This document shows, piece by piece, positions 5,409-62,119 of a stretch of 64,000 nucleotides of DNA. Numbering within the stretch: the first letter of the stretch is position 1; each line of letters opens with the position of its first letter. The translations under genes were made by a program, and so were the position numbers. The DNA comes from a virus (Duplodnaviria; Caudoviricetes). The stretch is from IMG/VR virus record IMGVR_UViG_3300042154_002208. One strand, 5' to 3'. Below the pieces are notes generated by a model. It did no database searches. It was given only the letters and a program-made list of their open reading frames with translations, and was not told where the DNA came from.

Positions 5409-5433
5409 ATGAGTATTGTTGAACGGAGTCATT

Positions 5434-6303
5434 ATGGCTAAACTTAAAATTTCAGAACTATTTTATTCAATTCAAGGCGAAGGCCGGTATATGGGTGTAC
5501 CATCTGTGTTCTTAAGAACATTTGGTTGCAATTTTACTTGTGACGGATTTGGTATGCCAAAGGGCGAAAAAAGCGATGAACGAAATGTTATCTCAATTAA
5601 AGCAGACAGTTTTAAAAATTACAATGACTTGCCTCTTGTACATACTGGCTGCGATTCCTATGCTAGTTGGGACCCTCGTTTTAAGCATCTTAGCCCTGTA
5701 CTCGATGTTAAAGATGTTGTGGAAGCAATCGTCGATACACTCCCACATAAAGAATGGAAAGACGAACACCTAGTTATTACTGGCGGTGAACCTTTATTGG
5801 GTTGGCAAAAACAATATCCGGAATTACTCGGTAATGAAAAAATGATAGCATTGAAAGAATTGACATTTGAGACAAATGGTACACAACCTTTGTCTAGCGA
5901 ATTTAAACAATATCTTTTAAATTGGACACTAAATAATAAAGGTCGCACTAGCAAAAGAGGTGTCGATGCTTTAACATTTTCAGTTTCACCTAAACTATCT
6001 GTATCGGGTGAAAAGTGGGAAGATGCAATTTGCCCAGAAATTGTAGCAGGTTATGAATGGTGCGGTTACACGTATCTTAAATTTGTGATTGGATCTAAAG
6101 AAGATGCAGAAGAAGCGGAACAGGCAGTAAATGCATATCGTAAAGCTGGTTTCTCAGGTCCTGTTTATCTTATGCCTCTCGGTGGAACTGAGCGGCTGTA
6201 CTCTCTTAATAATCGCAGCGTTGCAGAGTACGCAATGCAAAAAGGTTGGAGATATTCCGACCGACTACAAATCCCATTGTTTAAAAACGCATGGGGCACT
6301 TAA
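5434..6303 (+). CDS. queE: 7-carboxy-7-deazaguanine synthase (radical SAM)
   Basis: ELFYSIQGEG, FLRTFGCNFTC..GCDS, VITGGEP, ETNGT, SPKL, RLQIPLF. Confidence 0.92.
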   Translation: MAKLKISELFYSIQGEGRYMGVPSVFLRTFGCNFTCDGFGMPKGEKSDERNVISIKADSFKNYNDLPLVHTGCDSYASWDPRFKHLSPVLDVKDVVEAIVDTLPHKEWKDEHLVITGGEPLLGWQKQYPELLGNEKMIALKELTFETNGTQPLSSEFKQYLLNWTLNNKGRTSKRGVDALTFSVSPKLSVSGEKWEDAICPEIVAGYEWCGYTYLKFVIGSKEDAEEAEQAVNAYRKAGFSGPVYLMPLGGTERLYSLNNRSVAEYAMQKGWRYSDRLQIPLFKNAWGT

Positions 6304-6319
6304 CTAAAAGGAAAATAAC

Positions 6320-6514
6320 ATGAGCGCACATAACGACATTGAAACAAGTTTAGCGGCATATAATGCTGAGAATGAGAAATTTAACAAAGGCAATGCAGCC
6401 GCAGGTACACGTACTCGCAAAGCATTAGCAGAGTTAGCCAAAGCAGTTAAAGCACGTCGCAATGAAATTACTGCCGAAAAAGCAGCTAGAGCAGAAGCAA
6501 AAACTAAGGCATAA
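6320..6514 (+). CDS. Small basic histone H1-like (Hc1-type) protein
   Basis: KGNAAAGTRTRKALAELAKAVKARR resembles the Hc1 domain; Ala/Lys-rich tail. Confidence 0.6.
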   Translation: MSAHNDIETSLAAYNAENEKFNKGNAAAGTRTRKALAELAKAVKARRNEITAEKAARAEAKTKA

Positions 6515-6631
6515 TTATGGTCACCTGTAACAAGTCAGTAAGGCGTGTGCAGGTGTACCAATATCAAATACTTATGTTACACAACGGTAACATACTATCA
6601 AAAATAAACCATCACAAAGGAAGGTTATCAA

Positions 6632-7315
6632 ATGAGTTTTAATAAAACTAAATGCGACCCAGAATTGGGTCTTAGAGTACACGAACACCTAGTTAAAATT
6701 GGTGTTGAAACTCCAACAACAAAATCATTAATTCCAGATCGTAAAGATAAGATAGCAGTTATCGAACCTTTATTTGCCAAGATCATGGAAACACTTGGAC
6801 TTGATCTTACTGATGATAGTCTAATTGAAACACCTAAGCGCGTTGCCAAGATGTATGTAAATGAAATCTTTTGGGGGCTTGATTATGAAGCATTTCCAAA
6901 ATGCACAACCGTTGATAACAAAATGAAATACAATGAAATGGTTGTTGAACGTAATGTTAATGTTCAATCCAATTGTGAACATCACTTTGTCGTTATTGAT
7001 GGTTTAGCAACTGTTGCTTATGTTCCAAAAGACAAAGTTCTTGGTTTATCTAAAATTAATCGTATTGTGGAATATTTTAGCAAGCGACCACAGATTCAAG
7101 AACGATTAACAGAACAAATTTTTCACACACTACAATATATTCTTGATACTGAAGATGTTGCAGTCTTGATTGATGCTCAACATTATTGTGTTAAATCTAG
7201 AGGTGTCGAAGATACCGGAAGCTCTACTGTAACAGTTCGACTAGGTGGCGGATTTAAAAATCATCCAGAAGTAAGAAACGAGTTTTATCAGATTGCTCGA
7301 CAAGGATGTAAATGA
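6632..7315 (+). CDS. folE: GTP cyclohydrolase I
   Basis: ETPKRVAKMY, SNCEHH, GLSKINRIV, RPQIQERLT, HYCVKSRG. Confidence 0.96.
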   Translation: MSFNKTKCDPELGLRVHEHLVKIGVETPTTKSLIPDRKDKIAVIEPLFAKIMETLGLDLTDDSLIETPKRVAKMYVNEIFWGLDYEAFPKCTTVDNKMKYNEMVVERNVNVQSNCEHHFVVIDGLATVAYVPKDKVLGLSKINRIVEYFSKRPQIQERLTEQIFHTLQYILDTEDVAVLIDAQHYCVKSRGVEDTGSSTVTVRLGGGFKNHPEVRNEFYQIARQGCK

Positions 7316-7821
7316 CAGTAAATGTAATGGTTGACTTGGAGACAATGTCAACAAGATCGCATGCAGCTATTTGTTCAATCGGTGCAGTAAAATTTGAAGG
7401 CAGTAAAATTTTAGATACATTTTACTGCACGGTTGATCTTGCTAGTTGTAAAGAGGCGGGGATGCATATATCTAAAGCAACCGTCGAGTGGTGGTCTAAA
7501 CAAAATAAAGAAGCATTGCGGGAATTAACAAAGAATAATATCTCATTGCAAGAAGCTCTTGATAAATTTGAGTTATGGTTCGGTCCTAAAAGTCTACCTA
7601 TTTGGGGTAACGGTGCTGTATTTGATAACACAATCTTAGGCAATGCTTATTTTATTACAGGCAGAGAACCTCCTTGGAAATGCTGGGATGACCGTTGTTA
7701 TAGAACAGCGAAGGCAATGTTCAATTGGATTCCCGAAGCTAAACGCGAAGGCACGTATCATAATGCCTTAGATGATGCGATGCATCAAACAAAACATATA
7801 ATTAAAATTCTTGGTGAGTAA
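7312..7821 (+). CDS. DEDDh 3'-5' exonuclease (Rv2179c-like)
   Basis: MVDLET, SIGAVKF, WGNGAVFD, HNALDDA. Confidence 0.8.
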   Translation: MTVNVMVDLETMSTRSHAAICSIGAVKFEGSKILDTFYCTVDLASCKEAGMHISKATVEWWSKQNKEALRELTKNNISLQEALDKFELWFGPKSLPIWGNGAVFDNTILGNAYFITGREPPWKCWDDRCYRTAKAMFNWIPEAKREGTYHNALDDAMHQTKHIIKILGE

Positions 7822-7822
7822 T

Positions 7823-9184
7823 ATGCGTCTTTATAAAAAGAGAGTTGCGTTTTGTATTAGCGATCAACACCTTGTACCTCATGGTGGCATTGGTCAATTT
7901 GCGAAAGGCTTTGTTGAAATGGCAAATACTATTGACTGGAAAGTTGATATTATTACTGACAAACCTACAACAAATGATTTTGCTAAATTAGTTGAATCAT
8001 TGGGTGCAAATTTAATTTCTCCTAAAAATGCTTTGTCGTATAAGAATCATACCGGTACCTTTGCATTTACAGATTCAATTAACTTTGAAAAGATGATTAA
8101 CTTTCGGGATGCTGTTATGAATGCGTTTCATACTAACGTCTATGATATGGTTATCTGTAATTCATTAGAGGCAATGCCCGCAGTATTGAGTTTTGATCTT
8201 AATAATTATATCCCTGTAGTATTCTACACGCATGAAGAGAGTATGGTGTTCCGTGATACCAGAAAATTTAAAGGTGTATTCTTAGAAAGTTGTAATGAAT
8301 TTTTTAACAACTTAATGACTCTTGAGAACTGTTATATCGGTACACAATCTGCTCGTAATGTTTCCGAAATTAAAAATAACGGCGGAGTAAGCGTAGAACA
8401 TTTAAATATGCCCATGTCTGAAAGAGAATTGCTCACAAGTGATTATTCTGAAAGAAAAGGCGTCTTATATATTGGTAGATGGGAAGACCGTAAAAATCCA
8501 GAAGCATTTCTAAAAGTAATTAAAGAAACTGGATTGCCTGCAAAGATTATGACCAATGCTAACGGCAAAAAGAAATTTGAAGCTCGTCTTGCAGAACTTG
8601 GTATAACCGACTATGAGATTAAGGCTGGTATTGTAGGTAAAGAAAAGGTAGACTTTATTAAATCTGCAAAAGTTCATTTTAATCCTTCACTAAGAGAAAA
8701 CTACCCATTCACATTTTTTGAATGTTTAGGTCATATGCCTTGTATTGTTATTGATAAATCTGAATGGGTAACTAATTTTGATAGTAAATATTATATTCGT
8801 TTGCCACTTAATGATGTAGCAAATACATTAAAGATTGAATATGCTGCTGATCGAAAAGAACGAAACCATGATGCGTTGCAGTATGTGAAGCATTTGGATT
8901 TTCAAACATCTGATAGATGGAAAAAGTTTCTTGCCGGCTACACTCAAACAGCTTTGGCCAGATCAGATTCGGCAAAAATTAATGATTACTCCGAAATCAA
9001 ATATTCGGACTTTATTAAAATCCTAAATAGAACACAATTAGCTATAGATGATGTCAAAAGTATATTGACAAATAAGTCTAAATATAATATAATCTATACA
9101 GACAACGACACATACCTATCTAAAGATCCTAATTTTATACCAAAAGAAGAAGTTGCTTCTTCATTAGAAAGCCTGTTTGCATGA
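7823..9184 (+). CDS. GT-B (family 4-like) glycosyltransferase with C-terminal extension
   Basis: GGIGQF N-terminal motif, LYIGRWEDRKNP, FNPSLRENYPFTFFECLG. Confidence 0.8.
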   Translation: MRLYKKRVAFCISDQHLVPHGGIGQFAKGFVEMANTIDWKVDIITDKPTTNDFAKLVESLGANLISPKNALSYKNHTGTFAFTDSINFEKMINFRDAVMNAFHTNVYDMVICNSLEAMPAVLSFDLNNYIPVVFYTHEESMVFRDTRKFKGVFLESCNEFFNNLMTLENCYIGTQSARNVSEIKNNGGVSVEHLNMPMSERELLTSDYSERKGVLYIGRWEDRKNPEAFLKVIKETGLPAKIMTNANGKKKFEARLAELGITDYEIKAGIVGKEKVDFIKSAKVHFNPSLRENYPFTFFECLGHMPCIVIDKSEWVTNFDSKYYIRLPLNDVANTLKIEYAADRKERNHDALQYVKHLDFQTSDRWKKFLAGYTQTALARSDSAKINDYSEIKYSDFIKILNRTQLAIDDVKSILTNKSKYNIIYTDNDTYLSKDPNFIPKEEVASSLESLFA

Positions 9185-10467
9185 GAACATATGAATACGT
9201 AATTTCTGGCCCAGCATATTTACGCTTGGGTGCAGAACAATGTAATGACCCAGATGTATTAGAAATGATGCTTGACATGATTGCTAAGGTTTGTCACAAT
9301 CAAAACAACCATACATTCTCATTATTGTATAATGGATTTACAGAAAAGAACTTTGGCCCTAAGTTACAAAAGTTTCGTGCTTCAATTAATAATATTCATG
9401 CTGACTCTGGAGGTTTGCAGATTATTACTCGCGGTTTAAAAAATACTCCAGAAGTAAGAGAAAAAGTTTATTTGAATCAAGGTGCATATGCAGACATTGG
9501 TATGTCGTTTGATGAGATTCCTGTCAAGACAACTTCTACAAGTGGCGTATCATCTAAGATTGATACTAAGCGTAGATATGCAGACATGGATAATTTTGAT
9601 GATTATGCAAGACAAACGGGCAAGAATGTAAAATCACAAATTGAAACATTTGATAAGATGGGCAGCAAATGTAGACCATTTGTTATTATGCAGGGCTCAT
9701 CGCAAGAATCATATTCACGCTGGGCAAAATTAGTACTCGAAGAAATTACTCCAGCATTACATCATCGTATCGGTGGTCTTGCTATGGGATCGGCTGCTCT
9801 GGGTATGGGACAATTAGAAGACGTTAAACGAGCATTCTATGTTACACAGATGCCGTATACTAGACCATTTCATTTACACGTATTGGGTGTAGGTGCATTA
9901 CGTCGTATTCTACCTTATATTTGTTTTAGTCAATCTGGTCTATATGAAGGTATTGATATTTCATATGACTCTACCACACATTCTATGTCATTGGATAATG
10001 GATTGTTTTATTTCTCATTTGCTAAAAAAGCAGCAGGTTCACCATATGGTGGCACATCTGTAAAAATGGGCAGAGAGTATTCTAACATTTATAGAACAGT
10101 TACTAAAGAAATTAATACAGTATGTGGAACAAATTATACTCCTGAAGAATACCATATCTTAATGAACAGAGGCGTAGGCGTTCATTTGGAAGCAGGCGGA
10201 AAATTTGTTGATATTATGCGAGCACGTCTTGCCTTTATTTTAACAAACGTACATAATTTTACTCACGATGTCAATGCTTTGACAGAATCAAAAGAATTGT
10301 TCTTAAAGTTCTGTAGAGAAAAGGGGTGTGAGAATGAATACGCTACATTGTTTGATGTTAAGAATCTTTCTGATTTTGAAGATTGGGAAAGAAATGTAGG
10401 CAAGTATATGGAGTCTGAACCAGTTAACACACAACCACCAGTTTCACTTGAGGATTTATTTGCATGA
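9181..10467 (+). CDS. dpdA: DpdA/TGT-like guanine transglycosylase (candidate DNA 7-deazaguanine insertase)
   Basis: HADSGGLQ, SFDEIP, HLHVLGVG, ISYDSTT catalytic-type motifs; context folE/queD/queE. Confidence 0.72.
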   Translation: MRTYEYVISGPAYLRLGAEQCNDPDVLEMMLDMIAKVCHNQNNHTFSLLYNGFTEKNFGPKLQKFRASINNIHADSGGLQIITRGLKNTPEVREKVYLNQGAYADIGMSFDEIPVKTTSTSGVSSKIDTKRRYADMDNFDDYARQTGKNVKSQIETFDKMGSKCRPFVIMQGSSQESYSRWAKLVLEEITPALHHRIGGLAMGSAALGMGQLEDVKRAFYVTQMPYTRPFHLHVLGVGALRRILPYICFSQSGLYEGIDISYDSTTHSMSLDNGLFYFSFAKKAAGSPYGGTSVKMGREYSNIYRTVTKEINTVCGTNYTPEEYHILMNRGVGVHLEAGGKFVDIMRARLAFILTNVHNFTHDVNALTESKELFLKFCREKGCENEYATLFDVKNLSDFEDWERNVGKYMESEPVNTQPPVSLEDLFA

Positions 10468-10916
10468 CCGATATTATTTCAAACGAGCCAGTATTTTTTA
10501 CAGATACAATTATACATAGTAAATTAATTAAAAAGAAAAGTTCTATTTGGGTTACCTTTCGCAAAGAGGGTATTCATAAATATCCCCAAGCAGCAACTGA
10601 TCCTAAATTAGCAACAGGCGATTGGCTGGATGTTTCATTCTTAGGAACACCACATAGACATATTTTTCATTTCCGTGTAGAGATGGAAGTATTTCATGAT
10701 GATCGAGATGTAGAATTTATTCAAGCAAAACGCATTATGGAACGATGGTACTCTGATGGCACACTACATTTAGATTATAAGTCATGTGAAATGATGGCAT
10801 GCGAGCTTTATGATAAATGTGCTGCACAATGGCCTGATAGAGATTATACTATTGAAGTATCAGAAGATGGTGAAAACGGTTGTAGAATTAGTTTTGAAAG
10901 GATAGCTGGTGAGTAA
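10464..10916 (+). CDS. QueD-like T-fold protein, candidate CDG decarboxylase (DpdL-like)
   Basis: LGTPHRHIF (LxxxHRHxF), EFI, SCE and VSEDGENG motifs; directly after the dpdA-like gene. Confidence 0.6.
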   Translation: MTDIISNEPVFFTDTIIHSKLIKKKSSIWVTFRKEGIHKYPQAATDPKLATGDWLDVSFLGTPHRHIFHFRVEMEVFHDDRDVEFIQAKRIMERWYSDGTLHLDYKSCEMMACELYDKCAAQWPDRDYTIEVSEDGENGCRISFERIAGE

Positions 10917-12078
10917 ATTATATTATATGGGTTTAGAGCCCTATGAAGGTCGCTATACTTTACAGTTGCAACAATGGAGTGAAGCTGCATTTAAACGCAG
11001 AGGTATTGACTATGAAGTAATTCATGGTGATATTCTAGATGACTCTAAAGCAATTGTTACAGGTCAAGTACTTGATGCACACGGGCGTAGTTATTATTCG
11101 CTGACACAAATGGCTAATCTTATTAAGAAGATGAAATCTGGCGAAATAACATATGACGACACAATCTTTTTTGAAGATATGTTTACTCCTGGCATTGAGG
11201 CTTTGCCGTATATTATGGATCAAGTTGAATGGAAATATCAACCTCGTATCTTTGTTCGTTGTCTTGCACAAACAATTGATCCGGATGATTTTGTTCACGT
11301 ATGGGATATGCAGAAGTGGATGGGTCTATATGAAAAGATGACAGATCAATTCGTTACAGGTGTACTTGCATCTAACGAAGAAATGGTTGCTCATATGAAA
11401 ATTGCAGGTTGGGAAGCACCAATCTTTAATATCTCTGGACTGGCATTTGACAAAGATGAAGTTCGTAGTCGTGTAGCAACTCGTATTCCATTTAATGATC
11501 GTAAACTTCGTGTAGTATTTGCTGCAAGATTCGATCAGGAAAAACAACCCGATTTCTTTATGGATCTTATTGAAAGATATCATACAATTAACCCGGGTGT
11601 AGAATTTGCTGTCTTATCAGGCGGACCTTTACGTAGTAATAACGAAAAGTATTTGACTCGCGCGCGAGCATTAGAAAAGACTCACAATTTTAAAATTTAT
11701 GAGAATCTTAAAAAGAATGAATACTATGAGTTGTTAGGCGATTCCCGAGTATTATTTAATTGCGCATTGCAGGATTGGGTAAGTAATACTGCATCAGAAG
11801 CAGATGCACTTGGCACAAATTGTTTGTATCCTGCATATAGATCGTTCCCCGAAACATTTGCCAATGATCGCGAATGTCTCTATATCCCATGGTCACAAGA
11901 TGACGCAGTATTTAAATTAAATACGTTATTGTATAACGAGAGAACTAATTTAGGTAAGTTGTCTGATTGGACATCTGGTACTATTGAACGTTGTTTAGAT
12001 ATTATGTTTGAAGATAATGCTAAATGGTATCGTAACGGTAAGGATTATAGAGACCATGTCCCAGCAGCCAAGTACTAA
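10909..12078 (+). CDS. GT-B glycosyltransferase
   Basis: VVFAARFDQEKQP, FNCALQDWVSNTASEADALG C-terminal nucleotide-sugar-binding pattern. Confidence 0.75.
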   Translation: MSKLYYMGLEPYEGRYTLQLQQWSEAAFKRRGIDYEVIHGDILDDSKAIVTGQVLDAHGRSYYSLTQMANLIKKMKSGEITYDDTIFFEDMFTPGIEALPYIMDQVEWKYQPRIFVRCLAQTIDPDDFVHVWDMQKWMGLYEKMTDQFVTGVLASNEEMVAHMKIAGWEAPIFNISGLAFDKDEVRSRVATRIPFNDRKLRVVFAARFDQEKQPDFFMDLIERYHTINPGVEFAVLSGGPLRSNNEKYLTRARALEKTHNFKIYENLKKNEYYELLGDSRVLFNCALQDWVSNTASEADALGTNCLYPAYRSFPETFANDRECLYIPWSQDDAVFKLNTLLYNERTNLGKLSDWTSGTIERCLDIMFEDNAKWYRNGKDYRDHVPAAKY

Positions 12079-13078
12079 ATTAGTCGTTGTCACGGGTTCT
12101 GCCGGTTATATCGGCGGACAGACTTGTATTGAATTAAAGAAACAAGGATACGAAGTTATCGGTATTGATAACAGACACAACGAACATCTTGATGCATTTC
12201 AAGATGAATATCTACAATGCGACTTTACAGATTTAGACGCATTTAGTTTATACAAAAAGGTTTATCCTGTAGCAATTATACATTGTGCTGGTACTAGCTT
12301 AGTTAGTCCTAGTATGAAAAATCCGGGACATTACTTTCATAACAATGTATCTAAAACAAATTTGCTTTTAGATTTTGTTGCCAAACATATTCCAAAGACT
12401 AAGATTATTTTTAGTAGTAGCGCATCTGTTTATGGAATTCCTACAACAAAAACACCATTGAGAGAAAACGATAAGGTCGATCCTATTTCTCCTTATGGCG
12501 AATCTAAGTTAATGGTTGAACATTTATTGGAATGGTATCATCGATGCCACAAATTAAATTTCACTGCATTTAGATATTTTAATGCGTGCGGTGCAGATGA
12601 TAACGGCCAACATGGGCAAGAACCAAATGCAACCCATATCTTTGCCAAACTATTTGAAGCAGTCAAACATAATGCATCATTCACTTTAAATGGTGCAGAC
12701 TATGACACGCCTGACGGAACTTGTATTAGGGATTATATTCATGTTCAAGATATTGCGCTTGCACATATAAAAGCTATTGACAATTCTATTCAAGGCATAT
12801 ATAATTTAGGGATGCTTCAGGGGCATTCTAATCTACAAATTCAAATGCTTGTAGAAAAAATTACCGGTAAAGAGATTGTAACATTTATTAATAGACGACG
12901 CGAAGGAGATCCTCCATCGTTAGTTGCTGATAGTACAATGTTTAAACGTCTTGCAGATTGGACACCTGTATATGATATGTCGGACATTTTAACATCTTTA
13001 AAAACATGGTACAATTCTCCAACATATGAGGCTTTAACAAACCAGCGGTCTTACTCGAACATTCACCCCGCTTTATAA
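12056..13078 (+). CDS. galE: UDP-glucose 4-epimerase
   Basis: VTGSAGYIG, FSSSASVYG, PYGESK (YxxxK), RYFNACGA, RDYIHV. Confidence 0.88.
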   Translation: MSQQPSTKLVVVTGSAGYIGGQTCIELKKQGYEVIGIDNRHNEHLDAFQDEYLQCDFTDLDAFSLYKKVYPVAIIHCAGTSLVSPSMKNPGHYFHNNVSKTNLLLDFVAKHIPKTKIIFSSSASVYGIPTTKTPLRENDKVDPISPYGESKLMVEHLLEWYHRCHKLNFTAFRYFNACGADDNGQHGQEPNATHIFAKLFEAVKHNASFTLNGADYDTPDGTCIRDYIHVQDIALAHIKAIDNSIQGIYNLGMLQGHSNLQIQMLVEKITGKEIVTFINRRREGDPPSLVADSTMFKRLADWTPVYDMSDILTSLKTWYNSPTYEALTNQRSYSNIHPAL

Positions 13079-13116
13079 ATTCTGCATGTCGTCAAACTTA
13101 CTTAAAGAGGCAAGAG

Positions 13117-13599
13117 ATGGCAAATAAAAAATTCTTCTCAACAAAAACATATAGACAAATAGGTCCCGTAGCGTATAGACAATGGCGCGCAGATAGTCAT
13201 TGTAACTTAATTCATGGGTATGCCATGAGTTTTCATTTCGAATTCGAAGCGGATACTCTTGATGCTAGGAATTGGGTTACTGATTTTGGTGGATTGCGAC
13301 CACTTAAAGATAAGCTAGAAGAATGGTTTGACCACACTCTGCTAGTTGCACAAGATGATCCAATGCGAGAACATTTACTAGAATTGGGTAGATTAAAACT
13401 AGCTAAGATTACAGAAGTAGAGCGTACAGGATGTGAAGGTTTATCCGACTTCTTATATGAATATATTAACACAATCTTTTTACCTAACTGCGGCAGCGAA
13501 GAAGCTAAAAGAGTTTGGTGTTGCAGAGTAGAAGTTAGAGAGACTGATAGTAATATGGCAGGTCGCAGTGGTCATAGAGAAGATAATGAATTCGCTTGA
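13117..13599 (+). CDS. queD: 6-carboxy-5,6,7,8-tetrahydropterin synthase
   Basis: HCNLIHGY, WVTDFG, FDHT, GCEG, VRET motifs. Confidence 0.85.
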   Translation: MANKKFFSTKTYRQIGPVAYRQWRADSHCNLIHGYAMSFHFEFEADTLDARNWVTDFGGLRPLKDKLEEWFDHTLLVAQDDPMREHLLELGRLKLAKITEVERTGCEGLSDFLYEYINTIFLPNCGSEEAKRVWCCRVEVRETDSNMAGRSGHREDNEFA

Positions 13600-13778: not shown

Positions 13779-14834
13779 ATGAAAATTTGTTTATTGGGTG
13801 ATACGCATTTTGGGGTTAGGAATGATTCTAAAGCATTCCATATTTACTATGAAAAATTTTATAGTGAAGTTTTCTTTCCTTATTTAGAACAAGAAAATGT
13901 AACAACTGTTCTGCAGTTAGGTGATTTATTTGATCGTCGTAAGTATATTAACTTTATGTCCCTCGCAGAATCTCGTCGTTATTTTTTCGATGTGTTATCT
14001 AAAAAGAATATTAGATTAATTGCTCTTATAGGTAATCATGATATCTTTTGGAAAGAAAGTCTAAAAGTAAATTCTCCGGAATTACTTTTGGAAGACTACA
14101 ATAATATTGAAATTGTAAACAGCCCAACAACTATGCAATTTGATAATAAAAGCATAGACATTATTCCTTGGATTTGTAAAGAAAATGAAAATGATATTGC
14201 AGACTTTATAACTAAATCTGCATCAGATTTTTGTGCTGGACATTTTGAGCTATCAGGGTTTCAAATGATGAAAGGCATTGATAGTCACGATGGTATGGAT
14301 AGATCAATGCTGAAAACCTATAATACCGTTTTCAGTGGACATTATCATACTAGATCGCACGAAGATAATATTGTTTATCTGGGTACTCCATACGAACTGG
14401 CTTGGAACGATGAAGGCGATCCTAAGGGATTTTACATTTTTGATACTGATACTGGGTTGTTTGATTTTATTCAGAATCCGCTTAATATGTTTATTAAACA
14501 TTACTATGACGATGAAAAGACAGATCCCAATTTAATTGACAAGTCAATATTTACCAACAAGTACGTTAAACTTGTAGTAGTTAACAAAAAAGATATTTTA
14601 AAATTTGATAAATTTGTAGAAGCTATCTATACAAACAATCCTATAGAGTTAAAAATTATAGAAGACTTTTCAGAGTTTGAAGCTAGTGCATTGGATGATT
14701 CAATTGATCTAGAAGATACTATGACATTGTTATCTGATTATGTAGATAGCGTTGAAACAGATTCTGACAAAGAGCGGTTAAAGACTTTGCTAAAGACTTT
14801 ATATGTAGAAGCACAACATTATAATGAAGCATGA
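13779..14834 (+). CDS. gp47: Recombination endonuclease subunit gp47 (Mre11-like)
   Basis: GDTHFG, GDLFD, GNHD, GHFE, SGHYH phosphoesterase motifs. Confidence 0.95.
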   Translation: MKICLLGDTHFGVRNDSKAFHIYYEKFYSEVFFPYLEQENVTTVLQLGDLFDRRKYINFMSLAESRRYFFDVLSKKNIRLIALIGNHDIFWKESLKVNSPELLLEDYNNIEIVNSPTTMQFDNKSIDIIPWICKENENDIADFITKSASDFCAGHFELSGFQMMKGIDSHDGMDRSMLKTYNTVFSGHYHTRSHEDNIVYLGTPYELAWNDEGDPKGFYIFDTDTGLFDFIQNPLNMFIKHYYDDEKTDPNLIDKSIFTNKYVKLVVVNKKDILKFDKFVEAIYTNNPIELKIIEDFSEFEASALDDSIDLEDTMTLLSDYVDSVETDSDKERLKTLLKTLYVEAQHYNEA

Positions 14835-16543
14835 TAAAATTTAAGAAAATAATTTGGAAAAATTTCTTATCAACCGGCGGGCAATTTACTGAAGTAGAGT
14901 TTACTAAATCTTCATCTACTTTAATTGTTGGAGAAAACGGTGCAGGCAAAAGCACTATTTTAGATGCAATTTGTTTTGTTCTGTTTAATAAACCTTTTAG
15001 GAATATTAACAAACCGCAGTTGATGAATACTATCAACGGCAAGTTACTTGTTGTTGAGGTTGAATTTTCTATTGGTAACAAAGATTATAGAATTGTGCGA
15101 GGAATGAAACCTGGCATATTTGAGATCTATTGCAATGACGTATTATTGAATCAAGATGCTGCCTCAAGAGATTATCAAAAGTATCTTGAAGAAAGTATTT
15201 TAAAATTAAATTATAAATCATTCACTCAGATTGTTATATTAGGATCTGCATCATTTACTCCCTTCATGCAATTGTCTTTGGGAAATAGACGTGAAATTAT
15301 TGAGGATATTTTAGATATTCAAATTTTCACAGTTATGAATGCAGTATTAAAAGATAAAACAACTGACATAAAAGCTCGTATAACAGAGATTGAAAATGAT
15401 ATTACCTTAGGTAAAAATAAGGTTAAGTTGCATCAACAATATATTGCAACCCTTGAAAGCGACAAACAAAAGAAAGTTGAAGATGTACAAAAGCGCATAC
15501 TTGAATCGAATGCTGAGATATCACAACTTAATGCAGGAATGTTGGTCGAGCAAGAAAAAGAAACGAGTTGTAAATCCTCTATATCTGACGCCGATGAGAA
15601 GCGTAACAAGCGTACGGAGATGGGAGCGTTGCTTAGAAAGCTTTCCGAAAGAATTACTAATCAAGAAACAAGCATACAATTTTACCACGACCATGATGTT
15701 TGTCCAACGTGTAGCCAGGATCTTGACGAACATCTCAAAGGATCCGCAATCGAACTTCATACACATAAACGTGAAGAAGTGCAATCTGCGATTGAAGCCC
15801 TTAGCTTGCAACTTGAAGGTGTTGAAACTAGACTTAATGAGATTGATGCGATCGAAAAGAAAATCTCTGAATATACAAGCAACATCATTAGATATCAGTC
15901 AAAGATCATCGCATCTCAAACGTACATTCAAAAGCTACAGGCGGACCTGGCAGTCAACAATAATGATACGGCAAACATTGAAGATGAAACGAGAAAACTT
16001 AAAAACTTGGCCAAGGAAGTGGTCGCACTTGCAGGTGAAAAAAGTAAATTATCAGAAGATAAGCATTATTTAGATATTGCAAGTGTATTGCTAAAAGATA
16101 CTGGCATTAAAACAAAGATCATTCGTCAATACTTACCTGCAATAAATAAATTAGTAAATAAGTATTTGGCGGCAATGGATTTCTTTGTTCACTTTGAATT
16201 AGATGAATCTTTTAATGAAGTAATTAAATCTAGACACAGAGACGAGTTTAGTTATGCTTCATTTAGTGAAGGCGAAAAACAAAGAATAGATTTGGCGTTA
16301 TTGTTTACTTGGCGAACAATTGCTAAGATGAAAAATAGTGCAAGTACAAATTTACTATTATTAGATGAAGTATTTGATTCTTCATTAGACACAAATGGCA
16401 CAGACTATGTAATGAATTTATTAAATACAATTGGTGAAGATACAAACGTATTTGTAATTTCGCACAAAGGCGATCAACTCTTAGATAAGTTTAAGTCTGT
16501 AATTAAGTTTCAAAAGTATCAAAATTTTAGTAGAATATCATGA
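14831..16543 (+). CDS. gp46: Recombination endonuclease subunit gp46 (Rad50-like)
   Basis: GENGAGKST, CPTC zinc hook, FSEGEK signature, LLLDEVFD. Confidence 0.96.
   Translation: MIKFKKIIWKNFLSTGGQFTEVEFTKSSSTLIVGENGAGKSTILDAICFVLFNKPFRNINKPQLMNTINGKLLVVEVEFSIGNKDYRIVRGMKPGIFEIYCNDVLLNQDAASRDYQKYLEESILKLNYKSFTQIVILGSASFTPFMQLSLGNRREIIEDILDIQIFTVMNAVLKDKTTDIKARITEIENDITLGKNKVKLHQQYIATLESDKQKKVEDVQKRILESNAEISQLNAGMLVEQEKETSCKSSISDADEKRNKRTEMGALLRKLSERITNQETSIQFYHDHDVCPTCSQDLDEHLKGSAIELHTHKREEVQSAIEALSLQLEGVETRLNEIDAIEKKISEYTSNIIRYQSKIIASQTYIQKLQADLAVNNNDTANIEDETRKLKNLAKEVVALAGEKSKLSEDKHYLDIASVLLKDTGIKTKIIRQYLPAINKLVNKYLAAMDFFVHFELDESFNEVIKSRHRDEFSYASFSEGEKQRIDLALLFTWRTIAKMKNSASTNLLLLDEVFDSSLDTNGTDYVMNLLNTIGEDTNVFVISHKGDQLLDKFKSVIKFQKYQNFSRIS
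15444..16073 (+). CDS. Candidate overprinted basic ORF (+1 frame within gp46)
   Basis: 209 open codons on the same strand; gp46 codons here avoid NTA+purine pairs. Confidence 0.3.
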   Translation: MQPLKATNKRKLKMYKSAYLNRMLRYHNLMQECWSSKKKKRVVNPLYLTPMRSVTSVRRWERCLESFPKELLIKKQAYNFTTTMMFVQRVARILTNISKDPQSNFIHINVKKCNLRLKPLACNLKVLKLDLMRLMRSKRKSLNIQATSLDISQRSSHLKRTFKSYRRTWQSTIMIRQTLKMKRENLKTWPRKWSHLQVKKVNYQKISII

Positions 16544-21115: not shown

Positions 21116-21149
21116 AATGTATATTATAAATTCATTATAGGAATTGAAA

Positions 21150-22157
21150 ATGAAAACAGCATTAATTACTGGTATTACAGGCCAAGACGGATCGTACCTT
21201 GCAGAACTATTACTCGAAAAGGGTTATATGGTTCACGGCATTATTAGACGTAGTTCGTCAATCAACACAGGTCGCATCGACCACATCTACGATAACCCAA
21301 ATTTAAAACTACATTATGGCGACGTAACTGACTCTTTGTCACTTATGAACATACTTAAAAAGTATGAGCCAGATGAAATCTATAATTTGGCTGCACAAAG
21401 TCATGTTAAAGTTTCATTTGAGACTCCTGAATATACTGCACAAGTTGATGCATTAGGTACTTTAAAAATTCTTGAATCAGTTAGATTACTAAATTTAGAA
21501 CATAAGACTAAAATTTATCAGGCATCTACATCTGAGTTATATGGATTGGTGCAAGAAATCCCACAAAAAGAAACAACCCCATTTTATCCTCGCTCACCAT
21601 ATGGTGTAGCTAAACTATATGGATTTTGGATTGTTAAAAATTATCGTGAATCTTATAATATGTTTGCCTGTTCTGGTATTTTATTTAATCATGAATCTCC
21701 TCGTCGAGGACATAATTTTGTAACCAAGAAAATTGTAGATGGACTTGAAGCAATTAGTTCAGGTCGGCAGGAATGTTTATCTATGGGCAATTTAAATGCA
21801 AAACGTGATTGGGGGCACGCTAAAGATTATGTTAAAGCAATGTGGTTAATGTTGCAACAAGACACACCTGATGATTTTGTTATTGCCACCGGTGAACAAT
21901 ATTCGGTAAAAGATTTTGTTAATAAGTGCGCGCCATACTATCACTTATCTATTCGTTGGGAAGGCGCAGGCCTAAACGAAGTAGGTATTAATAATTACAA
22001 TAATAAAGTAATTATTCGAGTAGATGAAAAATACTTCCGCCCTGCAGAAGTAGAAACTTTATTGGGCGATCCATCAAAGGCAAAGAGTGTGTTAGGTTGG
22101 CAGCCTGAGCATACATTCGATAGTTTAGTTGAAGATATGTGTACTAATTTTGAGTGA
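21150..22157 (+). CDS. gmd: GDP-mannose 4,6-dehydratase
   Basis: [52 protein letters not shown]. Confidence 0.96.
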
Positions 22158-22164
22158 GGATAAT

Positions 22165-23100
22165 ATGGAAAAAAATAGTAAAATTTTTATTGCAGGTCAT
22201 AATGGTTTAGTAGGATCTGCTATTGTGCGTAAACTTCAGAATGAGGGTTACGATAATCTAATTCTTCGTTCTAAAAGTGAATTGGATTTACGAGATCAAC
22301 GAGCAGTTCGTAATTTCTTTAGTACAGAAAAACCTGAATATGTTTTCTTAGCAGCAGCTAAAGTTGGAGGTATCAATTATAACGCAACTAATCCTGCTGA
22401 GTTTATTTATGATAACCTTGCTATTCAGACTAACGTAATTGATGCAGCATATAGAAACAATTGTAGTAAATTGTTGTTCTTGGGTTCGGCCTGCATTTAT
22501 CCTAAGGTCACACCTCAACCTATTAAAGAAGAATACTTGTTAACAGCGCCACTAGAACCTTCTAATGAAGGTTACGCATTAGCTAAAATTACAGGTATGC
22601 GTATGTGCGAATATTACAGACGTCAATATGGTTTCAACGCTATTAGTTTGATGCCTGCAAATTTGTATGGGCCACATGACAATTTTATTCCTGAGCAAGG
22701 CCACGTTATCCCGGGTATCATTACTAAGTTCTTTAACGCAATGAAGAACAATGAAGATAGTATTATGTGCTGGGGAGATGGATCACCTACACGAGAATTT
22801 TTATATGTAGATGATTTAGCAGATGCTTGTTTGTTTCTGATGAATAATTACGACAAAGCTGAATTTATTAATGTAGGTAGCGATGTTGAAATTCCAATTA
22901 AAGAACTTTCAGAATTAATTAAAGATGCTGTTGGTTTCAAGGGTGAAATTAAGTGGGATACAACTCTACCGAATGGTACACCTAGACGCAAAATGGAAAA
23001 CTCAAGATTGTTTGACATGGGATGGAAACCAAAGGTATCGTTTGAGGAAGGACTCAAGCGTACGATTGATTGGTATAAAACAGAAAAAGGTATACTATGA
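22165..23100 (+). CDS. fcl: GDP-L-fucose synthase / ColC-like epimerase-reductase
   Basis: GHNGLVGSA, AAKVGGI, FLGSACIYP, YALAK, WGDGSPTREF. Confidence 0.9.
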   Translation: MEKNSKIFIAGHNGLVGSAIVRKLQNEGYDNLILRSKSELDLRDQRAVRNFFSTEKPEYVFLAAAKVGGINYNATNPAEFIYDNLAIQTNVIDAAYRNNCSKLLFLGSACIYPKVTPQPIKEEYLLTAPLEPSNEGYALAKITGMRMCEYYRRQYGFNAISLMPANLYGPHDNFIPEQGHVIPGIITKFFNAMKNNEDSIMCWGDGSPTREFLYVDDLADACLFLMNNYDKAEFINVGSDVEIPIKELSELIKDAVGFKGEIKWDTTLPNGTPRRKMENSRLFDMGWKPKVSFEEGLKRTIDWYKTEKGIL

Positions 23101-24266
23101 AGTGGCCGTTGATGGGTGAGACAATCACCTTTATGGACAGATTGAAGATGGCGCATTTTGCGCTGACAGCTAAGAAATTCACATTCGGTGAAAAGGTAAA
23201 ACAATTCGAAAACGAATGGAGCGAGTGGCTTGGCGCGAAACATTCTTTATATGTTTCTAGCGGAAGTACTGCAAACTTCTTATTGGTAGCGGCAGTTAAA
23301 GAGTTATACAAATTAAAAGCGGGTGACAAAGTATTAGTTCCTGCTTGCACATGGATGACGAATGTTTCACCTATTATGCAGCTTGGTCTTGAACCAGTAT
23401 TTTGCGATGTTAATCTAGATAATTTTAGTTTTGATCTCGAAGAAGCTAGATTGATTTCATTGAAGCATGATATTAAAATGGTATTCATTACTCATTTGTT
23501 AGGGTTCTCCGCAAACAATGAAGGTATTAAACGTATCTTCCCAAGAGCAATTATAATAGATGATATCTGCGAATCACATGGTTGCAAAACACCATACGGC
23601 GAAAAATGTGGTTCAAATAGTTTAGGTGCAACATTCAGTTTCTATTTTGGACATCATATGTCTACAGTAGAAGGTGGAATGATTTCCACAAACAATACTA
23701 AACTTTATGATTTGATGAAAATTAAACGAAGCCATGGTATGGCAAGAGAATCAATTAACTTCGATGAGTATGCTAAAAAATATCCTGATGTAGATAAACA
23801 ATTCTTGTTTGTTACCGACGGATACAATTTTAGAAATCATGAGATTTGTGCTGTACTTGGTATCTCGCAATTAAAACGTTTGGATAAAATGGTTGAGATT
23901 AGAAATAGAAATCACAAACTATTTACAGAAATTATTGACAAATATCCTAATCTGTTTTATACTATTAAAAATCCCAAAACAATTAGCAGCTTCTGTTTTC
24001 CTTTCATCTGCAGATCAAACGAGATCATGTTAGCAATGAAGGATACATTCACTAAACATACTATTGAATACAGACCAGTTGTTGCGGGCAATTTATTGTC
24101 ACAGCCTTTTCTTAAAGATTATAAAATAGAAACTACTAAGAAAAGAACCAATGCTGACATTATTCAGACACAAGGGGTTTATATCGGTAACAATCATTTT
24201 GTTACAGAATCAGACATGAAATTTTTAGATAAAGTAGTAGGAGAAATTAATGACCAATTTAGGTGA
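23097..24266 (+). CDS. PLP/PMP-dependent DegT-family enzyme, ColD-like GDP-4-keto-6-deoxymannose 3-dehydratase
   Basis: SSGSTAN, DDICESHG, FSFYFGHHMSTVEGG with His in place of the Schiff-base Lys; adjacent to gmd-fcl. Confidence 0.72.
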   Translation: MKWPLMGETITFMDRLKMAHFALTAKKFTFGEKVKQFENEWSEWLGAKHSLYVSSGSTANFLLVAAVKELYKLKAGDKVLVPACTWMTNVSPIMQLGLEPVFCDVNLDNFSFDLEEARLISLKHDIKMVFITHLLGFSANNEGIKRIFPRAIIIDDICESHGCKTPYGEKCGSNSLGATFSFYFGHHMSTVEGGMISTNNTKLYDLMKIKRSHGMARESINFDEYAKKYPDVDKQFLFVTDGYNFRNHEICAVLGISQLKRLDKMVEIRNRNHKLFTEIIDKYPNLFYTIKNPKTISSFCFPFICRSNEIMLAMKDTFTKHTIEYRPVVAGNLLSQPFLKDYKIETTKKRTNADIIQTQGVYIGNNHFVTESDMKFLDKVVGEINDQFR

Positions 24267-24609
24267 AAACATTGAGGAAGTTATTAAAAGAACAGTTAAC
24301 AATGTTTTAGATAATGCTAAAGATTTTGGTATGCCAGATTCCAATTATATCGCAACTGACAATCTAGGTGAGATTGTTGAGAAACTTGCTATCATTCATA
24401 TTAGAATGTGGATGCTTGAAGATGCATTTCAAACTGCAAAATCAGATGAAGAGATGGCTGATCTAAAACGCAAAGTTGATATTTGCTTCAAGGTTAAGCG
24501 TCCTAAATATGTTCAAGCTATTAACCTGCTAGTTGATGATGCTATTAAAAATGAAAAATCTTTGAGAGAAGATTCTGTTAAATTGTATAAAGGTATTGAT
24601 AATGTCTAA
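24250..24609 (+). CDS. Hypothetical protein (DUF4254-like helical)
   Basis: LGEIVEKLAIIHIRMWMLED pattern. Confidence 0.5.
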   Translation: MTNLGENIEEVIKRTVNNVLDNAKDFGMPDSNYIATDNLGEIVEKLAIIHIRMWMLEDAFQTAKSDEEMADLKRKVDICFKVKRPKYVQAINLLVDDAIKNEKSLREDSVKLYKGIDNV

Positions 24610-25516
24610 AATTGTTTTCTTTAATCATTATCACAAAGGTGATCTACATACGCATAAAGAATTTATTCGTCACATTCAATCACAACTACCAGAATTTACA
24701 TTCGAATATCTGCATAAAAATGCAGAAAAGTTAACCGCAGAATTGGGTATTTCTTTAATAGGGTCGCCCGATGATTTAGACAACAAGACTCCATTCTATC
24801 AGGATGAAGATACTTTGTTTGTTAATACGTGGGTTGGATGTAACTGGGATGTGTTCTGTAAGTATGGTGGTATTAATATGAATACTATCTACGAAGAATG
24901 GGGAGACATTGTAGATACAATTAATGAGACATTCGGTACTTCTGTTAAATTACATAAAGATAAAGAATATTATTTGCCTCGTATCAGCTACAACGCTTTA
25001 AGTATTGCAGGCGTAGATCAATATGTTAATTCTACAATTGGTGTTCGAAAAGTATTAGTCTGCAATAATGTACCTCAATCTAATCAGTCATTTTCTTCTG
25101 ATATGAAGGAACACATTTTGCCCTTTGCAGAAATGTATCCCGATACACATTTTATCTGCACTAATAAATTTGATACTGAAGGTGCTACAAATATTTTATT
25201 CACCGGCGATATTATAGGTCCTGTTACCGATGGAGATCTACAGGAGATTTCTTATCTAAGTACATACTGCAATGTTATTGTTGGTAAGAACTCTGGCCCG
25301 TATGTATTCTGCGAGACTTATGATAATTATATGGATGACACAAAAACATTTGTATCATTTAATACTAAGCATCCAGATTATGAAGATGTACATGAGACAA
25401 TGTCAAAAGATTTAAATATCAAATGTACGTATCATGCAATCCCAATCTTCAGCAATTCATTGACTGATAAAGATCACGAAAACATTATGTCTGCATTGAA
25501 TCGGGCATTTGCATGA
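24602..25516 (+). CDS. Glycosyltransferase-like protein
   Basis: HKGDLH N-terminus and IVGKNSGP motif resembling GT9-like enzymes; island context. Confidence 0.5.
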   Translation: MSKIVFFNHYHKGDLHTHKEFIRHIQSQLPEFTFEYLHKNAEKLTAELGISLIGSPDDLDNKTPFYQDEDTLFVNTWVGCNWDVFCKYGGINMNTIYEEWGDIVDTINETFGTSVKLHKDKEYYLPRISYNALSIAGVDQYVNSTIGVRKVLVCNNVPQSNQSFSSDMKEHILPFAEMYPDTHFICTNKFDTEGATNILFTGDIIGPVTDGDLQEISYLSTYCNVIVGKNSGPYVFCETYDNYMDDTKTFVSFNTKHPDYEDVHETMSKDLNIKCTYHAIPIFSNSLTDKDHENIMSALNRAFA

Positions 25517-26388
25517 AGCCGTTGAGAATAGCATTTGCAGATACACATGACCATCTTGCAGCGTTTTTTATATATCTTCTTCAGACTAGATATCAAGTAG
25601 ATATCGTAGGTATGAGTGAATCGCCGGATTTTTTATTATTTGGTGATGATAACTTTGGCCGTAATAACTTAAATATCACCAGAGATCAATGTACTAAGAT
25701 ATTGTTCACAGGTGAAAATCGTAGACCTGAGAATTTTGATTGCGACTATGCTATTAGTTTTGACCATATATTTGAACCATGGCATTACAGATTACCCTTG
25801 TATGTAATTTATATGTGGGCATTGGAGCATATCCATGAAACAAGATTTGATTTTAACTATATCTTTAATCCCGAGATTAAAGAAAAAACAGACTTTTGTA
25901 CGTTTGTAGTATCGAATCCAAATTGTAATGAGCGCAATGAATTCTTCAATAAGCTAAATAATATTAAACGTGTAGATAGCGGCGGCAAATTGTTTAACAA
26001 CATCAATGCTAATTTAACAGGCGAAGAAAGCAAAATAGATTTCCTTTCGACAAGAAAATTTAATATTTGTTTTGAACATACTTCTCATCCCGGTTATACT
26101 ACGGAGAAAATTCTTCACGCATTCTATGCAGGAACTGTTCCAATTTATTGGGGTTCCGAAACAATTGCAAATGACTTTAATCCTGCCGCATTCATAAATT
26201 TACACGATTTCAATAGCCAGGAAGAGGCTATTGCACATATAATGAAGGTTGATCAAGATGACGAACTATATGCATCTTATGTTAATGCTCCAAAATTTTT
26301 AAACGGAATCCCTCCGTCATTTGTAGTATTGGATAACTTCCTTAATTGGTTTGATGCTATAGTGTATAATAAAATTTTAAAACGATGA
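25513..26388 (+). CDS. GT10 alpha-1,3-fucosyltransferase-like
   Basis: FCTFVVSNP, VDSGG, KFNICFE, GYTTEKI, VPIYWG. Confidence 0.88.
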   Translation: MKPLRIAFADTHDHLAAFFIYLLQTRYQVDIVGMSESPDFLLFGDDNFGRNNLNITRDQCTKILFTGENRRPENFDCDYAISFDHIFEPWHYRLPLYVIYMWALEHIHETRFDFNYIFNPEIKEKTDFCTFVVSNPNCNERNEFFNKLNNIKRVDSGGKLFNNINANLTGEESKIDFLSTRKFNICFEHTSHPGYTTEKILHAFYAGTVPIYWGSETIANDFNPAAFINLHDFNSQEEAIAHIMKVDQDDELYASYVNAPKFLNGIPPSFVVLDNFLNWFDAIVYNKILKR

Positions 26389-27095
26389 AAATACAAACAT
26401 TTATCTTTAACTGGCGCGGACAGTATGAAAAAACAAAAGAAAAGCAAAAGCAACTGAGTGCCATTGGGGTCGTGCCTGTCGTTATTAATAGTGACGACAA
26501 TCACCGTGAGGACGATCCTAATTGGCACAACATTGGCGAGGACAGTTATTTTACCGCACAATTTTTAAAAGCAATTGAGTTATTTGATGCGGATGCAATG
26601 TTTCACATTCAAGCAGATGCATCTTATGATAATTGGACTGAAATTTATGCTGGCGCTGAAGAATGTTTCGACACTTACAACTGGGGCATCTATGCTCCGA
26701 ATGTAGATTATACATTCTATGATTCTAGTAGAGCTGATCTTAAATCGTTTGATCTAGAAGAGCCTTATTATAAAATGGTTGCAAATCCTGATTGTACTTG
26801 TTGGTTTATTCATAAAGATATTATTGAGGATGCTAAGAATCGTAATATCGATTTTGCCCCCTATAAAATGGGATGGAGCTTTGATATAGTATATACTGCA
26901 ATTGGTTATATTAGTAAGAGGCCCGTTATCAGAGATTATCGTTACACAATCTCACATCCGCCAGGAACAAACTATAGTAAACAACAAGCTGAGACTGAGA
27001 TGCATACGTTTTACTCAAACCTGCCTTCAGATATTCAGACTGCATTTAAATATATTAAACAAGACAAAGAACATTTAGGAAAATATTATGCTTAA
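26385..27095 (+). CDS. Hypothetical GT-A-like protein
   Basis: FHIQADA, IYAPNVD; island context. Confidence 0.5.
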   Translation: MKIQTFIFNWRGQYEKTKEKQKQLSAIGVVPVVINSDDNHREDDPNWHNIGEDSYFTAQFLKAIELFDADAMFHIQADASYDNWTEIYAGAEECFDTYNWGIYAPNVDYTFYDSSRADLKSFDLEEPYYKMVANPDCTCWFIHKDIIEDAKNRNIDFAPYKMGWSFDIVYTAIGYISKRPVIRDYRYTISHPPGTNYSKQQAETEMHTFYSNLPSDIQTAFKYIKQDKEHLGKYYA

Positions 27096-28020
27096 AAACT
27101 TCTTTGAGGTTAATGATTTAATTTCGGAAAAATTGCAAGCAAATGAACCTTTTTCATTATTGCGTCTAGATAATAGTGCGGGGTATGTTCTACAAAATCT
27201 GTTTAACAATACTAGTATATCCCCACAATTCTTTAATAATACTGCTCTTTCTTTTGAGGGTGGGATAACTCCGGGTACAACTGACTATTATATAGATACC
27301 ATTGTTCCTATGTTAACACAATCTATGAAAGAATGTGATATACTCGGATTTGTTGATATGTCATTAGCCATACAAAATGATACGACCTTTACAAAAACAT
27401 TCGGCGAAAAGCCTATGTTCTTTGGGCATGATAGTCTTATGGTTTTGGATCCTATCGGTGTTCTAAGAGGCGGGTTATGCGGAACATTTAAGGTCGAAAC
27501 ACCTTGGACAAAATATTTAAAAAATAAAAAAGTATTAATTATATCTACGCATTGTGAAACTATTAAATCGCAATGGCAACAGATTGATAAAATATGGGGA
27601 GACAATTTAGATTTAGTTGCACCGTTTGATTTAGTAGGATGTATTCGTACTCCGTACCATCCTTTAATGGATGACAGACAATATCCTGGTTGCGAAACGT
27701 GGGAACAAAATGTAGAATACATAAAAAATGAAATTGATAAGTATGAATATGACGTTTTAATTTCTGGAGCATCAACATCTTCTCCTATATATGTAGAACA
27801 TGCGAAAAAACGAGGCAAAGTAGGTATACAAACTGGCGGCGTGCATCAGTTATTCTTCGGCATATTAGGACATCGTTGGTCACCCGAGGCAAACAACGGA
27901 TATAGAGTATGGGCAGAATATTATAATGAACATTGGACATATCCTTTTAAAGAAGACGAAGCAAGGAATAAAAATCAAGTAAGACATTTGGAAGGCAATT
28001 ATGCCTATTGGAAACCATGA
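27088..28020 (+). CDS. Putative glycosyltransferase (GT-D/DUF1792-like)
   Basis: KKVLIIS and YDVLISGA..GIQTGGVHQLFFGI pattern. Confidence 0.55.
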   Translation: MLKNFFEVNDLISEKLQANEPFSLLRLDNSAGYVLQNLFNNTSISPQFFNNTALSFEGGITPGTTDYYIDTIVPMLTQSMKECDILGFVDMSLAIQNDTTFTKTFGEKPMFFGHDSLMVLDPIGVLRGGLCGTFKVETPWTKYLKNKKVLIISTHCETIKSQWQQIDKIWGDNLDLVAPFDLVGCIRTPYHPLMDDRQYPGCETWEQNVEYIKNEIDKYEYDVLISGASTSSPIYVEHAKKRGKVGIQTGGVHQLFFGILGHRWSPEANNGYRVWAEYYNEHWTYPFKEDEARNKNQVRHLEGNYAYWKP

Positions 28021-29342: not shown

Positions 29343-29343
29343 T

Positions 29344-31869: not shown

Positions 31870-31881
31870 ATTGAGTATTTT

Positions 31882-42120: not shown

Positions 42121-42194
42121 CGCGGATTGGTGAAATGGTATCACAAAGGACTCATAATCCTTAGTTCCTAGTTCAACTCTGGGGTCCGCATCCA
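42121..42194 (+). tRNA. tRNA with CAT anticodon (Met/fMet/Ile2 ambiguous)
   Basis: Cloverleaf, AAGGA-CTCATAA-TCCTT arm, TTCAACT T-loop, encoded CCA; C1:A72 mismatch. Confidence 0.85.
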
Positions 42195-62039: not shown

Positions 62040-62113
62040 ATCCGGTTAGCTCAATAGTAGAGCATTCGACTGATAATCGAAAGACAGAGGAGCGTTACCT
62101 CTACTGGATACCA
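62040..62113 (+). tRNA. tRNA-Ile(GAT), non-canonical T-loop
   Basis: TTCGA-CTGATAA-TCGAA arm; T-arm AGAGG-AGCGTTA-CCTCT; CCA. Confidence 0.75.
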
Positions 62114-62119
62114 AATTTT

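Follow-up and report, generated by a model that had tools for sequence, protein, structure and literature searches.

The analysed stretch of DNA, hereafter the window, is 64 kb long and is part of a T4-like phage genome. Its genes include those for the major head protein, the tail tube, a UvsW-like helicase, the late sigma factor, DNA polymerase, UvsX and a helicase, together with 14 tRNA genes (42121-42194 and 62040-63961), Ile(TAT) and Leu(TAG) among them. The gene gp46 encodes a Rad50/SbcC-like ATPase and directly follows gp47, the gene for an Mre11-like metallophosphoesterase, with which it likely forms one transcript; on the downstream side it is adjoined by a peptide deformylase gene (Table 1). 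The closest gp46 from a cultured phage is that of Methylophilales phage Melnitz, at just 50% identity, and the close relatives are uncultured viral contigs, which, by our reading of the sample series, come mostly from fresh water. Stop-codon recoding was ruled out, since the window genes are intact under table 11.

Table 1. Position of gp47, gp46 and the features of the +1 frame in the window (residues are numbered from 1)
Feature	Position	Strand	Evidence or remark
gp47, Mre11-like metallophosphoesterase, directly 5' of gp46	13779..14834	+	Pfam Metallophos; adjacent in nearly all loci
gp46, Rad50/SbcC-like ATPase, 570 aa, ancestral frame	14831..16543	+	PHROG 77, E 1e-177; Pfam SMC_N, AAA_23, weak Rad50 zinc hook
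Unconserved stop-free stretch 5' of the ATG, containing TTG 15444	15411..15482	+	TAG two codons before the ATG in 46/78 relatives
Putative internal translation-start region	15462..15500	+	Purine-rich, weakly folded, weak Shine-Dalgarno-like pairing
Predicted overprinted gene, +1 frame, ATG to TAG, 196 aa, wholly nested in gp46 residues 218-414	15483..16073	+	
Conserved core, about aa 1-135	15483..15887	+	Invariant columns in 64 sequences, stop map, lengths
Rare TCC invariant at gp46 Ser249, read as Pro32 in the new frame	15575..15577	+	TCC 39/39
gp46 codon 272 always xCC (Ser TCC, Thr ACC, Ala GCC), Pro55 in the new frame	15644..15646	+	39/39 in clade A
gp46 zinc hook CPTC, intact beneath the overlap	15701..15712	+	
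Variable C-terminal tail	15888..16073	+	Total length 115-239 aa, depending on the stop of each relative

The +1 frame of gp46 contains 36 stops in all. The last one before a long gap lies at 15408 and 17 follow the gap, so that 220 codons (15411-16070) are free of stops across the zinc-hook coiled coil. The initial annotation had described here a 209-codon ORF (15444-16073), about twice as long as any other out-of-frame ORF on the same strand, and both statements proved correct: 209 amino acids are counted from the TTG at 15444, and the runner-up stretch among the 47 window genes has 113 codons. The accompanying claims of a shifted leucine codon usage, of avoided stop-making codon pairs and of a higher local GC were likewise borne out. 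Over the overlap, the Leu codons of gp46 are CTT (12), TTG (4), TTA (2) and CTA, CTC and CTG (one each), and in the gp46 flanks TTA makes up 22 of the 37 Leu codons. Of the places where a Leu, Ile, Val or Met codon could create a +1 stop, none has one in the ORF (0 of 31), against 19 of 39 upstream and 16 of 25 downstream. The GC content is 0.40 over the overlap, compared with 0.30 and 0.28 in the flanks.

With the gp46 protein held fixed, the probability that the frame contains no stop between ATG 15483 and its end was 6e-8 under genome or whole-gene codon usage, and 5.6e-4 under the codon usage of the region itself. A codon-shuffling null model, suggested in the initial annotation, was run with 20,000 synonymous shuffles, in which the longest open stretch reached 158 codons. 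As a control, the 91-codon +1 stop-free stretch in uvsX (56424-56698 of the window) was followed in the relatives; it was closed in those at 88-90% identity and is therefore due to chance.

For the start of the ORF, either TTG 15444 or ATG 15483 had been put forward. The ATG, which sits in gp46 Asp218, is conserved; the TTG is not, and because a TAG stands two codons 5' of the ATG in 46 of the 78 relatives, TTG 15444 was ruled out as a start and an upstream frameshift is argued against. The stretch between the last stop and the ATG is thus probably untranslated in the +1 frame. In one relative (L104) the conserved ATG is changed to ACG, but another ATG lies one codon upstream. Given this stop before the ATG, and an ATG either conserved or compensated, a programmed frameshift product of gp46 was rejected, and no slippery motif for frameshifting was visible; a shift inside the first few codons would still be compatible with a stop two codons before the ATG. 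The start region had a mean MFE of -3.2 kcal/mol vs -6.5 kcal/mol at other +1 ATGs, and an anti-SD value of -3.3 vs -1.2, each of them merely within the best 13-16%.

A scan based on gp46 returned 80 loci. Among the 36 relatives covering the start with at least 67% gp46 identity (67-98%), the frame was open from the ATG codon across the hook region in 29 and closed in 7, and below 63% identity none was open from the position of ATG 15483; one of the six gp46 search patterns ends at the ATG codon, so that a slight bias towards open genes is possible. Frequent +1 stops in close relatives, named in the initial annotation as a ground for rejection, were absent from the close relatives. The addition of scans based on the ORF gave 78 distinct genes with a frame of at least 100 codons beginning at that ATG position, the most distant having about 64% gp46 identity; this set was selected for the ORF and hence describes its shape and not its frequency. 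While gp46 matches 4223 phage records, the overprinted ORF matches none, and the gp46 genes of cultured T4-like phages were closed in the +1 frame in 9 of 9 cases. The length of gp46 and the position of its hook are equal with and without the ORF. A homing endonuclease or other mobile insertion was ruled out by this unchanged length and by the lack of a Pfam or PHROG match. A literature search, mostly outside subscription journals, found no report of a gene inside gp46.

The synonymous sites of gp46, whose analysis had also been proposed at the outset, were then compared over the overlap and its flanks. In 20 disjoint pairs of open genes, the gp46-synonymous divergence was 0.186 in the overlap vs 0.298 and 0.282 in the flanks, a reduction of about 37%, whereas 8 pairs of closed genes showed no drop in the same region (0.346 vs 0.322 and 0.283). 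The changes that alter gp46 were also counted pairwise, those also altering the new protein vs those that do not. This ratio (dNN/dNS) was 0.81 (95% 0.60-1.02) for the new frame in open genes, and closed genes gave 1.31 (1.23-1.52) over this region, the flanks having 1.09 and 0.93, close to the value of the open overlap. By itself the ratio is modest and borderline: since its interval touches 1 and it lies near the flank values, the amino-acid signal comes from the contrast with the closed pairs and from single fixed codons.

Two such codons are listed in Table 1. The TCC that is invariant at gp46 Ser249 makes up only 50 of 852 Ser codons (6%) in the flanks. At codon 272, the sequences of clade B, a second group introduced below, have TCC in 17 of 19 cases, and three of the four closed clade B alleles have TCT. 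In addition, gp46 Arg274 and Arg334 alternate between AGA and CGA, so Glu57 and Asp117 stay in the new frame. The mean column identity of the overprinted protein is 49%. In closed genes, the dN/dS-like ratio of gp46 itself was 0.46 in the overlap region vs 0.11 and 0.03 in the heads, and the coiled-coil region is where gp46 is most tolerant of change. These comparisons show purifying selection on the frame, on its ATG and on particular residues, and they support the original proposal that the tolerant coiled coil contains a selected overlapping gene. We consider it very probable that the ORF is a selected protein-coding gene.

The core of the encoded protein is marked, in 64 sequences, by an N-terminal MYKxxYLxR, an NP at positions 31-32, the set W47-L51-P55-L58 and a block from N110 to S135. 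The shortest natural versions end at 115-141 aa, and the varying position of the stop suggests that the working part is N-terminal, probably the first 115-135 residues. Some constraint persists in the tail where it is present (dNN/dNS of 0.69).

In trees built from entire gp46 and from those parts of it outside the overlap, closed genes were interspersed among the open ones; the gp46 tree is a quick one with a weak backbone. Three relatives (L031, L060 and L190) keep the ATG and most of the signature codons, yet have 4-9 stops, and on this evidence are pseudogenes. In three others (L013, L024 and L206) the residue difference is 48-69% in the core vs 9-18% in the 5' head, which suggests either an older loss or an exchange of the coiled-coil segment. 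Closed genes among open ones, together with the pseudogenes, indicate that the overprinted gene has been lost repeatedly and point to an accessory gene, dispensable in some lineages. No correlation was found between the presence or loss of the ORF and the neighbouring genes. An imported codon bias, the other objection raised in the initial annotation, does not account for the pattern, because the frame is improbable even under the region's own usage and the pseudogenised alleles regain stops while keeping their signature codons.

A scan made with a closed gp46 gene led to clade B, in which gp46 is about 57% identical to that of the window and carries a 131-codon +1 frame. Here the +1 frame was open in 31 of the 35 distinct genes, from residue 217 to residue 331, 348 or 390, mostly with an ATG at the codon of residue 217, and the remaining four had 4-9 stops within the first 115 codons. 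The probability per sequence was 0.007-0.09, the synonymous suppression was slight, and the evidence for an overprinted gene is weaker in this clade than in clade A. The starts of the two clades are one codon apart and Pro55 is common to both, being mostly absent from the closed clade B alleles; the similarity of the two profiles is no higher than that to closed frames. An HHalign comparison of clades A and B (93%) was rejected as proof of common origin, as closed frames score equally. The backbone of the tree is weak; a common origin is possible. A third, divergent form, lacking Pro32, Trp47 and Pro55, occurs in L222 (3126-3809; 65% gp46 identity), with 228 open +1 codons from the same ATG codon as in the window and a probability of 1e-10.

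The predicted product from ATG 15483 has 196 aa, a mass of 23.7 kDa and a pI of 11.1. It is therefore as basic as the initial annotation had stated, but not as a selected feature: the net charge per residue is +0.19 for the ORF, +0.21 to +0.24 for closed frames and -0.06 for the overlapped gp46 segment. A basic charge results in any case when Glu/Lys/Gln-rich codons are read in the +1 frame; it was discarded as a functional clue, closed frames being at least as basic. Compared with closed frames, the ORF is less hydrophobic and has more Pro and more acidic residues. No transmembrane stretch was found (the best 19-residue hydropathy has a mean of 0.5 and a maximum of 1.61, residues 1-113), and no conserved Cys, lipobox or signal peptide was found in the product. 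Without a lipobox Cys or a transmembrane helix, it is therefore neither an embedded o-spanin nor a single-gene lysis protein.

A profile of 20 sequences had one match among 1.84 billion proteins, and a profile of clade B had one among the candidates of 5.8 billion. Both of these, the only occurrences in the protein collections searched, are the same ORF, called because a run of N had broken gp46 in the assembly. No homolog outside gp46 was found among the 1.84 billion proteins, no match in Pfam or in a PDB sequence search, and no family similarity in PHROGs (64 members searched). Foldseek searches against viral and PDB libraries and the Atlas gave no structural match, and the ESM Atlas features were all below 0.9. 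The AlphaFold model consists of helices joined by low-confidence loops with no confident fold (pLDDT 64, pTM 0.27; for clade B, pLDDT 67, pTM 0.24), so the blanks of the structure searches are no sign of a new fold. Overall, a soluble, basic, mostly helical and loosely folded protein is predicted. The product would be a new protein family, and the gene itself was previously unannotated.

We propose that the coiled-coil arms of gp46, which tolerate most amino-acid change, were overprinted in their +1 frame and so gave rise to the gene. From the layout of the locus and T4 biology, translation would start internally, at this ATG of the gp47-gp46 message, and the product would then, by analogy with T4, be made before and during DNA replication. 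The protein may use short helical motifs to bind a host nucleic acid or an acidic host protein. It would thereby serve host takeover or counter-defence under certain conditions only, the gene being retained in phages whose hosts possess the target and lost from the others. De novo frames mostly encode accessory proteins, according to data from RNA viruses (PMC8227390). Given the gene, we place a conditional host-directed role, argued by analogy, a little short of even; the overprinted gene and the host-directed role taken together are our best explanation, and a tentative one. The counter-defence role is argued from analogy and from the pattern of loss, which tracks no neighbouring gene.

The product might instead act on the phage's own replication and recombination, by coating phage DNA or by binding the acidic coiled coil or hook of gp46 and so tuning the gp46/47 nuclease. 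Its nesting in gp46, hence co-expression with gp46/47, its charge opposite to that of the overlapped segment and the fact that the ORF was never seen apart from gp46 agree with such a role; linkage and opposite charge, however, are to be expected of any overprint here, given that closed frames are just as basic, and a core cofactor fits poorly with repeated loss while gp46, hook and neighbours are otherwise intact. We regard this role as unlikely. Small basic proteins of T4 such as the internal proteins, MotB and Ndd offer models for other accessory roles, for example inside the virion or in the control of transcription or translation. A soluble, helical prediction suits these accessory roles, but no exact T4 late promoter TATAAATA occurs in gp47-gp46 upstream of the ATG and the product resembles no PHROG family; we consider them rather unlikely. 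A candidate internal late promoter near 15212 was dismissed, being a near-match only and the same in closed genes.

It is improbable that translation of the frame matters and the protein does not, through +1 ribosome traffic that regulates the stability or output of the gp46 message or through a frameshift that fuses the gp46 head to the new frame. Stops are avoided far more strictly than residues are conserved and the stop position varies, as that reading would have it, but specific residues are held by rare codons, the ORF stop does not abut a downstream start, and the TAG before the ATG, the compensated ATG of L104 and the lack of a visible slippery motif all count against it. That there is no gene at all, the frame having been left open by imported codon bias, RNA structure, an antisense gene or shared ancestry, is highly improbable: the GC is higher over the region, the relatives are not independent and a codon-aligned antisense frame is also long in the window (125 codons), but the open frame exceeds chance even with the region's own codons, the overlap had no consistent folding signal of conserved RNA structure (nor did gp46 match Rfam), the antisense frame is unconserved, being open in merely 19 of 60 relatives, and an antisense gene was thus ruled out, the chance stretch in uvsX closes at 88-90% identity where the gp46 frame survives to 64%, and pseudogenised alleles regain stops.

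Nested +1 genes on the same strand are known from lambda, where the embedded o-spanin Rz1 lies in Rz, a coiled-coil protein, and from phiX174, where E lies in D. The gp46 ORF resembles them in this arrangement, and Rz1/Rz also in the coiled coil; it differs in having no lipobox Cys, signal peptide or transmembrane stretch and in lying outside a lysis cassette. The nearest precedent appears to be T4 30.3', a short basic product of about 75 aa encoded in the +1 frame inside the small accessory gene 30.3. Both are basic +1 products wholly inside another gene of a T4-like phage, although here the product has about 196 aa, lies inside the essential gp46, and its selection and losses were traced over dozens of genomes. 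The T4 30.3 protein is AdfN (PMC11825919). In hepatitis B virus, preS1 overlies the polymerase spacer (PMC9093120). This is likewise a new frame in a sequence-tolerant linker of an essential replication enzyme; in gp46, by contrast, tolerance resides in a structured region, the antiparallel coiled coil that bears the zinc hook, and phages can apparently dispense with the new gene.

By the criteria of Keese-Gibbs and Rancurel, as reviewed in PMC8227390, the ORF probably belongs with de novo overprints: its frame is beyond chance, its start is conserved, both frames are constrained, its distribution is narrower than that of gp46, and it has no non-overlapping homolog. As in other overprinted viral genes of that review, an alternative frame lies on an older, widespread gene and is restricted, without homolog, probably accessory and loosely structured. 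That review covers small eukaryotic viruses below 30 kb, whereas the gene overprinted here encodes an ATPase at the core of replication, and the phage is a large tailed one, with relatives' contigs of up to 222 kb. The overlap of 591 nt is fully nested, compared with a median +1 overlap of 14 nt in viral genomes (PMC8903798).

Long nested genes are considered uncommon among large dsDNA phages, and they are discarded by gene callers. Here, apparently, a selected gene of about 200 residues without a known relative lies concealed in a core replication gene. The coexisting open, truncated, pseudogenised and replaced alleles provide a natural series in which to study the birth and loss of a gene and the price of double coding to a coiled coil. 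An equivalent open-frame screen would be cheap to apply to other phage core genes and may reveal more. It is doubtful, though conceivable, that one ancient overprint of the Rad50 coiled coil supplied a wide radiation of freshwater T4-like phages, comprising both clades as well as L222 and reaching down to about 57% gp46 identity, with a new host-directed family that cycles through active, pseudogenised and replaced alleles by segment exchange. If so, the Rad50 coiled coil of large dsDNA phages would be a recurring nursery of new genes that standard annotation misses.

Other features were observed in gp46 of the relatives. In L308 (3309-3827), whose gp46 has 53% identity, a 173-codon open +1 frame lies elsewhere, at residues of about 270-442, with a probability of about 1.5e-4 under its own flank codons; this single sequence is possibly an independent overprint. 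In the clade B relatives L228-L280, the segment before the hook (residues of about 220-262) is hypervariable and mosaic, and the heads are nearly identical; L278 and L263, for example, differ at 43% of residues in this segment vs 2% in the heads. A two-piece intein (Pfam Intein_splicing, E 7e-14) interrupts gp46 of L197 (1358-3561) directly after the Walker A lysine. Its N-part of about 29 residues ends with a stop at 1567 and its C-part of about 125 residues begins with an ATG near 1597 in another frame. This could reflect a frameshift error or a natural split of the intein, whose N-fragment would then be very short. In L076, L124, L132, L186 and L187, gp46 matches in two frames, with breaks near residues 152-172, 181, 217-225 and 351-357, probably because of assembly errors.

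Elsewhere in the window, QueE-like, GTP cyclohydrolase and QueD-like genes (5416-13599), with a glycosyltransferase and an epimerase near by, suggest a DNA modification based on 7-deazaguanine; the names QueD and epimerase were taken from sequence and from the neighbours in L200. A run of same-strand genes of about 16 kb (21144-36989), the first of which codes for GDP-mannose 4,6-dehydratase, resembles an island for sugar modification. Finally, antisense frames of 163 and 185 stop-free codons were found on the minus strand inside two unnamed genes (1826-2260 and 27288-27818, respectively), and each exceeded all of 400 codon simulations.
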